The notes under the pieces were generated by a model. It was given only the letters and a program-made list of their open reading frames with translations. It was not told the DNA's origin and ran no database searches. Below are positions 486-2,148 of a stretch of DNA of 64,000 nt, piece after piece. Position 1 is the first letter of the stretch. Every line of letters begins with the position of its first letter. This stretch comes from Escherichia coli (lineage in GTDB: Bacteria > Pseudomonadota > Gammaproteobacteria > Enterobacterales > Enterobacteriaceae). Position numbers and translations under genes: made by a program. The stretch lies in NCBI RefSeq assembly GCF_001677475.2, contig NZ_CP015229.1; one strand, 5' to 3'.

Positions 486-670
486 AGCATCTGTTTTATT
501 TGTTACGTCGTTAGTCACCAGCCCTGACACTACGCAGCGAAAAAGCTGCTCAATGCCAGGGCTGAATTTGTTAAATATTTGTCCTGATCGATATGAGCGA
601 TTTTTGGTATTCTTTGCCCATGATGTTATGTACAACATGCTCCAGGATAACCCTGTAGTGGAGCAAAGAT

Positions 671-2128
671 ATGACAATTTCAAATTCGAATTTATTGAAA
701 CCGTTTATTACTGGTACTGAGTTGCCACCTTTTAAAGAGGATGTTTTTTCTAAAACAGAAGAACAATTTAAAAAAAGCCCCCATGGCAAATTACTTTTCA
801 TTTCCGGAAATGAAAACTTAGTAAACATTTCAGCGGAAAAAATCGATGAAATAAAAAATAGCAAAGATTTCTTTTCAAACATTGTAAATATAATAATTTT
901 ACTCATTAAGCATCCTGATAAAATTCTGCCCATTCTTCATGGTTGTCCTGCAGAGTCCATCGAACTCATTAAGAATGCGAAACGAACGGGGCAATGGTCA
1001 TATGAGATGACTGATAAGAACGGGCAGAATATTGAAGTGTCCTATATTTTCACTGATACCATAGATGATAAATCTGATGGAAAATTATGCTTAAAAATCT
1101 ATAACTCTTGCAACCAAAATGATTCTAGTACACATGAATATAAAATAGATCATCAACAGTTGAAAAATCACATAAGGCAACTTGAGGAGTGGGCCCTTCT
1201 TGAAAAGTTTTATGATAACAACGCTTATTATTCTAAACGTACAAAACAATTAGAGAAGAAAATTGCCGATGCGGGGTTTATAACAGGGAAGGTTAATGCC
1301 GATAACTTTAATGTAAAAGAGTTTAAAGACGATATAGCCTCGATGCTTTGTGAACAGCCCCCCATGCGTACACACCAGATTTCTTCATCCGGATACTTAT
1401 CTGCCGATAAAGTGCCCGATCTCTATAAGACAAATTTGAAAGACGCGCAGAGAGATCTGAAAACAACACCGGTTGACATCGATGGTGTTAGTCTAAAATC
1501 AAAAACTCGGGAAAAAATTGCAAAAGAAATTGCGAAAAAAACTGAGGAAGAAAATGCGGAAAAAATTGCGAAACAAAATGCGAAGACCATTGAGGAGAAG
1601 AATAGTGAAAAAAACAAGAAAGAAACAAATCCTGAGGATAATTTTGTCTTAAAATTCTCACCGGAAGAAATCAATGAGATGCTCCTGGATTACAGCGATG
1701 AAGAACAAAAAAAATTAAGACCTTTTTTCACTAGTGATCACATGTATTGTTTGTTTGATGCTTTTAGTCAGGGGTTGCATAATGTTGCTCGTAATGGCAG
1801 TCCACGGTATGCAGGTTTACTACGTCAAATAGCATCCAAGTCTGCGATATTACAAGATTTTGATCAACAATTGTTCTGGCGCACGTTTTCAGGAGGAGTC
1901 TTCCATCGACGTATCTCTGTGAACAGCGAGCCAGAAAAGACAGATGTATGGCGATTCAGTACACAATTTGATTTTCCACATATAAATGACAACGGAGAGT
2001 TGTCCAGAACGGTACTCATGTTCGAGGGGGTTGCTGAAAGCAACTTTAAAGATATCGCCAATCATTCCAGCGAATGTTTTTCTTACAGTTGTTATGCCGC
2101 TCCGCTGGATGCGAATGCTAAAAAATAG
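671..2128 (+). CDS. Orphan 485-aa protein in an AT-rich insertion; putative papain-fold (OTU-like) cysteine peptidase effector/toxin with a Lys/Glu-rich repeat linker
   Basis: Uninterrupted 1458-nt ORF in AT-rich DNA (about one third G+C by eye), GGAG at 660-663 seven nt before the ATG, stop TAG at 2126-2128. No counterpart in the K-12-type gene order that I know. Cys box DHMYC(360)LFDAFSQGLH and H437-I-N439-D. No signal peptide or transmembrane segment evident. Confidence 0.8.
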   Translation: MTISNSNLLKPFITGTELPPFKEDVFSKTEEQFKKSPHGKLLFISGNENLVNISAEKIDEIKNSKDFFSNIVNIIILLIKHPDKILPILHGCPAESIELIKNAKRTGQWSYEMTDKNGQNIEVSYIFTDTIDDKSDGKLCLKIYNSCNQNDSSTHEYKIDHQQLKNHIRQLEEWALLEKFYDNNAYYSKRTKQLEKKIADAGFITGKVNADNFNVKEFKDDIASMLCEQPPMRTHQISSSGYLSADKVPDLYKTNLKDAQRDLKTTPVDIDGVSLKSKTREKIAKEIAKKTEEENAEKIAKQNAKTIEEKNSEKNKKETNPEDNFVLKFSPEEINEMLLDYSDEEQKKLRPFFTSDHMYCLFDAFSQGLHNVARNGSPRYAGLLRQIASKSAILQDFDQQLFWRTFSGGVFHRRISVNSEPEKTDVWRFSTQFDFPHINDNGELSRTVLMFEGVAESNFKDIANHSSECFSYSCYAAPLDANAKK

Positions 2129-2148
2129 TGACGCCGGAGCTTGAAGTT

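Follow-up and report, generated by a model that had tools for sequence, protein, structure and literature searches.

A small low-G+C islet with an orphan gene at the malZ-acpH junction of Escherichia coli

Segments of the Escherichia coli O157:H7 chromosome that are absent from K-12 are called O-islands or S-loops, names that go with the EDL933 and Sakai genomes. Species-specific orphan genes were surveyed by Vakirlis and Kupczok 2024 (PMC11293555), according to whom most orphans match the G+C content of their host and only the ~5% with viral similarity have a lower one. The convergent gene pair malZ-acpH of K-12 is in turn listed as a convergent excludon (ExcludonFinder, PMC12288877), in the only paper that a literature search for malZ together with acpH/yajB returned. 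Here we describe a segment of about 1.67 kb that lies between malZ and acpH in a 64,000-nucleotide stretch of E. coli DNA (contig NZ_CP015229.1 of RefSeq assembly GCF_001677475.2; the whole stretch is referred to below as the window) and that carries a single long open reading frame (ORF), known as ECs_0454 in O157:H7 Sakai. The segment is a small low-G+C accessory islet with a species-restricted orphan gene, a well-known kind of element. We consider it likely that it entered E. coli in a single insertion, that it spread among lineages by recombination, and that its gene is weakly constrained.

The islet resembles several described kinds of element and fully fits none of the larger ones. With the orphan genes of the survey it shares the lack of homologues outside the species or genus, variable presence, poor codon usage, signs of weak purifying selection and the lack of a known function. 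It differs from them in a G+C content far below that of the host with no viral similarity, and in occurring in ~21% of genomes rather than rarely; its 485 aa also seem long for an orphan gene, an impression rather than a comparison of lengths. Like the O-islands and S-loops it is a strain-specific low-G+C insert in the O157:H7 backbone, whereas it is among the smallest of them, has one gene and no phage or insertion sequence (IS) content, and is not specific to O157, being found in many lineages other than enterohaemorrhagic E. coli, such as sequence types ST69 and ST648 and strain SMS-3-5. Deviant G+C and variable presence are likewise properties of tRNA-associated genomic and pathogenicity islands, from which the segment differs in having no tRNA target, integrase or direct repeats, in measuring 1.7 kb instead of tens of kb, and in occupying a convergent gene junction; among the features that define classical islands, the deviation in base composition was the only one found. 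As for convergent excludons, the junction is the one listed for K-12, and in carriers the orphan ORF converges on acpH across a gap of 20 nt, while any effect of the insert on antisense overlap in carriers would be read from the arrangement of the genes.

The segment was present in 1127 of 5426 complete E. coli genomes, always as a single chromosomal copy and with 90-99% identity, and in all 12 alleles examined it lay between malZ and acpH. In order to count empty sites, a query of 1200 bp centred on the empty K-12 junction was used; it matched as one unbroken stretch in 4295 genomes and as two separate pieces in exactly 1127. Filled and empty sites thus account for 5422 of the 5424 genomes with a match, i.e., the site is two-state and holds no alternative cargo of the sort that marks defence hot spots. 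All sampled carriers had the same short segment, with no longer version among them. The carriers include O157:H7 (about one quarter of an evenly spaced carrier sample), O55:H7, O145, ST69, ST648 and SMS-3-5, while K-12 and the sampled cerebrospinal fluid and river isolates have the empty site. The locus is therefore strain-variable, as had been proposed in a preliminary description of the window made from its letters.

Two genomes showed further changes at the site. In E. coli DCM188-6 (~2940-3000 of its locus) malZ is absent, and sequence resembling the priming site or scar of a resistance cassette (…GAAGCAGCTCCAGCCTACA…) abuts the last 21 nt of malZ; this genome, one of the two that fit neither state, looks like an engineered K-12 malZ deletion. 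In O55:H7 strain USDA5905 (locus 1594-3334) a deletion takes the 3' end of malZ and the first ~374 codons of the ORF, joining truncated malZ to the last 111 codons of the ORF and leaving two adjacent pseudogenes.

In K-12-type genomes the stop codons of malZ and acpH are 4 nt apart (TAA-CGTT-TTATAA; ...GATGAAC TAA CGTT TTA TAA CGCC...). In all 12 carriers examined the segment begins directly after the malZ stop (TAA followed by AGCATCTG) and ends in ...GAAGTT TCAGAG followed by CGCC, with the homology breakpoint at 2154/2155. The insert replaced 10 bp of the empty site (the spacer plus the Leu-stop of acpH) with no target duplication, and it re-encodes the Leu-stop, so that the MalZ and AcpH proteins are unchanged. 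The last codon and stop of acpH read TCAGAG in 12 of 12 carriers, TTATAA in the three empty E. coli sites examined and TTACAA in two of four other Escherichia; the resulting 3 nt are the only fixed differences between carriers and empty sites in the compared parts of malZ (483 bp) and acpH (582 bp). Between the final 10 nt of the insert and the replaced CGTTTTATAA, 6 of 10 positions agree, which is too weak to settle if the 6 nt of acpH diverged in place or were imported. Given three differences within 6 nt beside 30 identical nt, we favour import, and we assume that selection tolerated only insertions preserving the Leu-stop. Because the junctions are identical in 12 carriers, each genome has one chromosomal copy and the site is two-state, a single event is indicated, in which illegitimate recombination would have placed a piece of foreign, AT-rich DNA, one time only, in the 4 nt that separate the convergent malZ and acpH.

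The base composition of the segment also sets it apart. Its G+C content (positions 486-2148) is 37.4%, compared with 51.1% for the 64-kb window, and no other stretch of 1663 bp in the window is lower (stretch mean 51.2%, standard deviation 3.0). The ORF has 36.6% G+C and 34.2% at third codon positions (GC3), whereas the malZ fragment, acpH and queA have 54-56% with a GC3 of 58-59%. A codon-usage index trained on the 29 remaining ORFs of the window that reach 250 aa or more gave the orphan ORF 0.546 versus 0.697 ± 0.057 (z = -2.6), the last place among 30 ORFs. Judged on G+C (37% vs. 51%) and on the worst codon usage of the 30, the donor of the segment appears to have been foreign. The remaining ORFs of the segment measure at most 120 aa, lie in other frames or on the other strand, and each overlaps the orphan ORF at least partly. 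ARAGORN found no tRNA or tmRNA gene at positions 1-8000, there is no integrase or transposase (the sole long ORF had no Pfam or NCBIfam match), and nothing in Rfam matched within the island. In the repeat search neither direct repeats bracketing the segment (att sites) nor terminal inverted repeats rose above chance level. A 13-nt pair (GTGACGCC...; 2128-2140 and 2163-2175, 11 of 13 nt alike) was considered as a flanking repeat and rejected, both copies being at the right-hand end and the match at chance level.

Most of what the preliminary description had stated about the segment agrees with these results: by eye it had put the G+C at about one third against one half for the flanking genes, it had malZ and acpH abutting in K-12, and it saw one gene with no integrase, transposase or tRNA, and no IS ends or flanking direct repeats. 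K-12 lacks the segment, and the ORF is clearly distinct from core genes in G+C and codon usage, the two points on which that description had made itself dependent. Its left limit at 486 was also correct; the right one has to be moved from 2148/2149 to the homology breakpoint.

Population-genetic comparisons were made with 12 carriers, out of 1127, and three empty genomes. The island alleles are mosaic (87 informative sites, 31% of pairs failing the four-gamete test, a minimum number of recombination events, Rmin, of 19), and the flanks show no linkage to the presence or absence of the segment beyond the 3 nt at the end of acpH. Pairwise distances between islands correlate moderately with those of malZ (rho 0.40) and not with those of acpH (rho 0.15). 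Synonymous divergence (dS) of the island is 0.039, three to four times below that of malZ, acpH and queA (0.12-0.16) and within the range of tgt (0.064) and yajC (0.013). In strain 24A16CRGN010 the flanks are 88-93% identical to those of other carriers and the island 97%. The window itself has a backbone (4000-24000, tgt to yajR) whose identity does not exceed 97.0% against any of the 5416 complete E. coli genomes, and an island 99.0% identical to that of strain NY1601; mismatch density climbs within a few hundred bp of the junctions. Together, the mosaic alleles, unlinked flanks and discordant distances indicate an old segment that homologous recombination has moved between diverged backgrounds. 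Such recombination, of the ordinary kind and acting through the flanking core genes, would pass the islet between lineages or erase it, and in this way an element with no mobility machinery would persist as a presence/absence polymorphism. The preliminary description had suggested an old acquisition, or one fixed by recombination through the flanking core genes. The age accords with the synonymous divergence and mosaic alleles, and the route with the near-identical islands on divergent backbones; "fixed" does not hold for a locus polymorphic at ~21%.

Two observations concern the surroundings of the islet. The high dS is confined to a patch formed by the malZ 3' end, acpH and queA (1-485, 2149-2730 and 2949-4019), with the lower values of tgt and yajC only a few kb away, a pattern that marks local deep or imported haplotypes. 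When compared with its best match, the backbone is a mosaic of blocks with 99-100% identity and blocks with 87-95% (e.g., ~6570-7070, 12070-12570, 15070-15570); judging from these identities, the E. coli lineage behind the window is divergent or has recombined heavily.

Four properties of its sequence mark the ORF as a real protein-coding sequence. Its stop-free run of 489 codons compares with a mean of 86 and a maximum of 183 in shuffles of the segment (n = 2000), the G+C content differs by codon position (GC1 0.44 > GC3 0.34 > GC2 0.32) with purine-rich first positions, a GGAG motif precedes the start codon, and the differences in length between alleles in the repeat region are in frame. The excess of synonymous over nonsynonymous change, clearest in the first 60 codons and given below, points the same way. 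The encoded proteins are mostly 469-493 aa long, their lengths in most cases lying multiples of 4 aa apart. Database entries are often labelled "partial", with ~295-330 aa at contig ends, and short-read assemblies may break near the 12-nt repeat.

Searches with the 485-aa protein gave nothing significant in Pfam (best E = 0.026), NCBIfam (0 hits), PHROGs (best E = 0.006 over 32 residues) or the PDB sequences (E ≥ 0.6); in PADLOC the only match was to Cas7e (E = 0.022, 12.5 bits) within the low-complexity Lys/Glu repeat, which leaves no defence model for this gene. Type III effector families were likewise absent among the matches in Pfam, NCBIfam and PDB sequences. A phmmer search against 1.84 billion representatives (15 billion proteins) returned a single full-length cluster, the orphan's own, in addition to fragments of the same gene. 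The sole other match was P0140 (E = 5.6e-6), in which residues 102-158 (57 residues) align to a thrice-repeated PKD-like unit of a 947-aa protein; it was not accepted as homology and was taken as a weak hint of a small beta domain. Each source name read was "hypothetical protein", with E. coli, Shigella dysenteriae or Escherichia sp. as the organism. No match was found by tblastn in 50,697 phage records or in a scan of IMG/VR, and the only "plasmid" matches by tblastn were two records of 4.9 Mb, i.e., chromosomes. On the strength of these searches the protein is an Escherichia coli-restricted orphan with no homologue outside the taxon. Predicted secondary structure, indicative only, begins with helices, has four strands at ~108-160 and a long helix spanning the repeat, and ends in a helical and beta C-terminal part. 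The protein is probably soluble, as no signal peptide or membrane segment was evident by eye.

Constraint on this protein is low. In nine intact alleles, nonsynonymous divergence (dN) is 0.026 and dS 0.039, a ratio of 0.68, whereas in these strains the ratio is 0.13 at the malZ 3' end and 0.06 in acpH. The 107 nonsynonymous and 39 synonymous polymorphisms correspond to a ratio of 0.67 (one-sided p = 0.025 vs. neutrality), and diversity is near equal at the three codon positions (0.041, 0.032, 0.044). The ratio of nonsynonymous to synonymous polymorphism (pN/pS) is lowest in the first 60 codons (0.32) and reaches 0.8-1.5 in the middle, where constraint is absent; the last ~90 residues have little nucleotide diversity, yet a pN/pS of 0.67. 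The 185-nt leader is about twice as conserved as the ORF. By annotation 3 of the 12 alleles are frameshifted (O145 RM8995-C1, DSM 103246 and ST648). These figures, together with the deletion in USDA5905, indicate a protein under weak purifying selection that is decaying in some lineages.

Just downstream of the malZ stop lies an imperfect hairpin that occurs once in the window, with an outer stem of 11 bp in most alleles and an inner stem GCAGC/GCUGC, followed by AAUUUGUU. Its stems are nearly invariant, the 12 alleles having one substitution (in the window's own allele) and varying in length in the loop only. In this position the hairpin, together with AAUUUGUU, would probably terminate malZ transcription. 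The promoter scan gave nothing 5' of the ORF and the terminator scan nothing at either junction. AT-rich foreign DNA is usually bound and silenced by H-NS, and H-NS silencing would probably keep the orphan gene poorly expressed in the laboratory. Given the listing of malZ-acpH as an excludon in K-12, the insert must put 1.67 kb between malZ and acpH, with the orphan ORF taking over, at a distance of 20 nt, as the gene that converges on acpH; it probably separates the convergent transcriptional overlap reported for K-12.

The origin of the segment can be read in two other ways. The gene could be ancestral to Escherichia, the tight K-12-type junction having arisen by repeated precise deletions; the 4-nt junction resembles a deletion scar, and deletions that touch the ORF do exist, as in USDA5905. 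Escherichia did, moreover, lose something at this site: in many other Enterobacteriaceae (Salmonella enterica subsp. arizonae, Leclercia, some Citrobacter, Enterobacter and Pluralibacter; 11 loci, L018, L031, L036, L038, L043, L047, L053, L081, L083, L085 and L088) acpH and malZ are separated by a 200-aa peroxiredoxin C gene (NF011576, 473 bits) with a normal G+C content. This gene is missing from Escherichia, whose tight junction therefore goes back to an earlier loss. Most of the remaining genera sampled have no malZ within 4 kb of acpH. The outgroup scan (one genome per species with AcpH, 80 loci returned) speaks against an ancestral gene, however: the four non-coli Escherichia representatives (E. 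albertii, Escherichia sp. MOD1-EC7003, Escherichia sp. E1V33 and the divergent "E. coli" SCPM-O-B-8794) are all empty, with a 4-nt spacer and acpH ending in TTA/TTG-TAA, and one has the exact K-12 junction sequence. An empty junction is thus the ancestral condition of the genus, and the segment is a gain made inside E. coli. Deletions that arose independently should not look alike, whereas all empty sites examined share one architecture; the G+C and codon usage of the segment are foreign, and the island dS is below that of the flanks. The deletion account is largely refuted and in our opinion highly improbable. Insertion would instead have taken place in an early E. coli lineage, after its split from E. 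albertii and the other Escherichia species. Alternatively, the segment could be what remained of a prophage, IS, transposon or integrative element after its mobility genes had been deleted, as AT-rich single-gene remnants are common. Against such an ancestry stand the missing terminal and flanking repeats, the lack of a tRNA and of phage, plasmid or IMG/VR relatives, and the single copy per genome with the same short segment in every sampled carrier. Terminal inverted repeats, target-site duplications and multiple copies, by which IS elements, transposons and miniature inverted-repeat transposable elements (MITEs) are recognized, were all lacking, and there is hardly any chance that the segment is such a remnant.

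The other question is if the gene is retained for a function. The ORF could have a selected, lineage-specific role, e.g., as a protein secreted by type III systems (via the locus of enterocyte effacement, LEE, or E. coli type III secretion system 2, ETT2), a host-interaction factor or a single-gene phage defence, in which case the high dN/dS and the repeat would reflect diversifying selection and not decay. Consistent with this, the gene is intact in most carriers over ~4% synonymous divergence, its N-terminal 60 codons are better conserved than the middle and its last ~90 residues vary little, the repeat region varies in frame, the leader is conserved, and enterohaemorrhagic E. coli (EHEC) lineages are among the carriers. 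Ser, Thr, Asn, Ile and Pro also abound among the first 20 residues, and acidic residues are missing up to position 16, by eye a possible resemblance to type III signals. On the other hand, no similarity to any effector, toxin or defence family searched was found, the segment has no partner gene (chaperone, immunity gene or regulator), the site lacks the alternative cargo of defence hot spots, one in four sampled alleles is a pseudogene, the three codon positions are almost equally diverse, and a literature search for Z0502/ECs0454 found no study of the locus, only unrelated uses of the string. A selected role of this kind seems unlikely to us; what speaks for secretion, host interaction or defence comes down to retention and the better-conserved N-terminus. 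Similarly unlikely is a wider version in which the ORF encodes a functional, fast-evolving E. coli-specific protein (such as a secreted host-interaction factor that has a length-variable coiled-coil spacer) under selection in lineages including EHEC O157:H7, and the island in addition rewires the 3' antisense coupling of malZ and acpH via the terminator-like hairpin and the new partner of acpH.

Several points also weigh against the account that we prefer, the single insertion of an orphan islet with recombinational spread and a weakly constrained gene. That the end of the insert encodes the exact Leu-stop of acpH is put down to an assumed selection among insertion events. The 80 loci included neither E. 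fergusonii, which belonged to the comparison across Escherichia proposed in the preliminary description, nor the GTDB E. coli representative, so that this comparison stands for E. albertii and the three other representatives while the outgroup sampling is incomplete. The population-genetic figures come from the few carriers named above, and the named carriers are taken to belong to phylogroups E, D and F. The fold z-score of the hairpin, -1.4 for a context of 115 nt, is unremarkable, and the pattern scan did not call it a terminator. Lastly, the AlphaFold2 models were unusable (pLDDT 35 for the full length and 47 for the C-terminal 166 aa), alongside alignments that are >89% identical and have no covariation, and fold matches of models with such low confidence are meaningless.

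Table 1 Features at the malZ-acpH junction of the window (positions in nt)
Feature	Position	Strand	Remarks
malZ 3' end (maltodextrin glucosidase)	3-485	+	left flank; stop TAA at 483-485; annotated malZ in matching RefSeq records
Inserted segment, limits at homology breakpoints	486-2154	+	1669 bp here, 1600-1684 bp in other alleles; replaces 10 bp CGTTTTATAA of the empty site
Non-coding leader	486-670	+	nucleotide diversity (pi) 0.019 vs. 0.039 for the ORF
Conserved imperfect hairpin downstream of malZ stop	519-564	+	inverted repeat; candidate malZ terminator
GGAG, Shine-Dalgarno-like	660-663	+	7 nt 5' of ATG; invariant in 12 alleles
Orphan ORF, 485 aa (ECs_0454 of O157:H7 Sakai)	671-2128	+	annotated as hypothetical protein
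In-frame 12-nt tandem repeat, consensus AAAAAATTGCGA	1512-1584 (wider 1501-1628)	+	Lys/Glu/Ala-rich predicted helix; copy number depends on allele
Spacer, ORF stop to acpH stop	2129-2148		20 nt
acpH stop and last Leu codon, island-linked form	2149-2154	-	TCAGAG (CTC TGA on the - strand); TTATAA or TTACAA in empty sites
acpH (acyl carrier protein phosphodiesterase), 193 aa	2149-2730	-	right flank; stop at 2149-2151

Elsewhere in the window two further features were observed. An ERIC-like repeat (enterobacterial repetitive intergenic consensus, also intergenic repeat unit, IRU) of ~126 bp lies at 2740-2865 in the acpH-queA intergenic region (2731-2948), where the primer consensus of ERIC2 (reverse complement) matches 2772-2793 and that of ERIC1R 2795-2816, with two mismatches each. 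The repeat is a presence/absence polymorphism of its own, the intergenic gap being 218 bp long in the window and in strains N44 and SCU-482 and 92 bp long in K-12 and Sakai, and it accounts for a sub-threshold Rfam match to V_AS5 (35 bits vs. a gathering score of 96). After the islet, the lowest G+C in the window is that of 57700-59100 (0.32-0.43), which contains tomB (58177-58551, - strand) and hha (inside the ORF 57933-58397, - strand), both identified by NCBIfam matches (233 and 169 bits); the two belong to the normal core gene set and lie upstream of acrB, so that this stretch is not an island.

The segment is called "hypothetical" in the annotations of thousands of genomes, and its practical importance is limited until a function or a condition of expression is known. 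Occurring in O157:H7 and many extraintestinal lineages and absent in K-12, it can serve as a presence/absence marker and is a candidate for lineage-specific biology. For E. coli as a species, it offers a clean, small case of a gene with no known relatives that entered the species and persisted in it with no mobility machinery.

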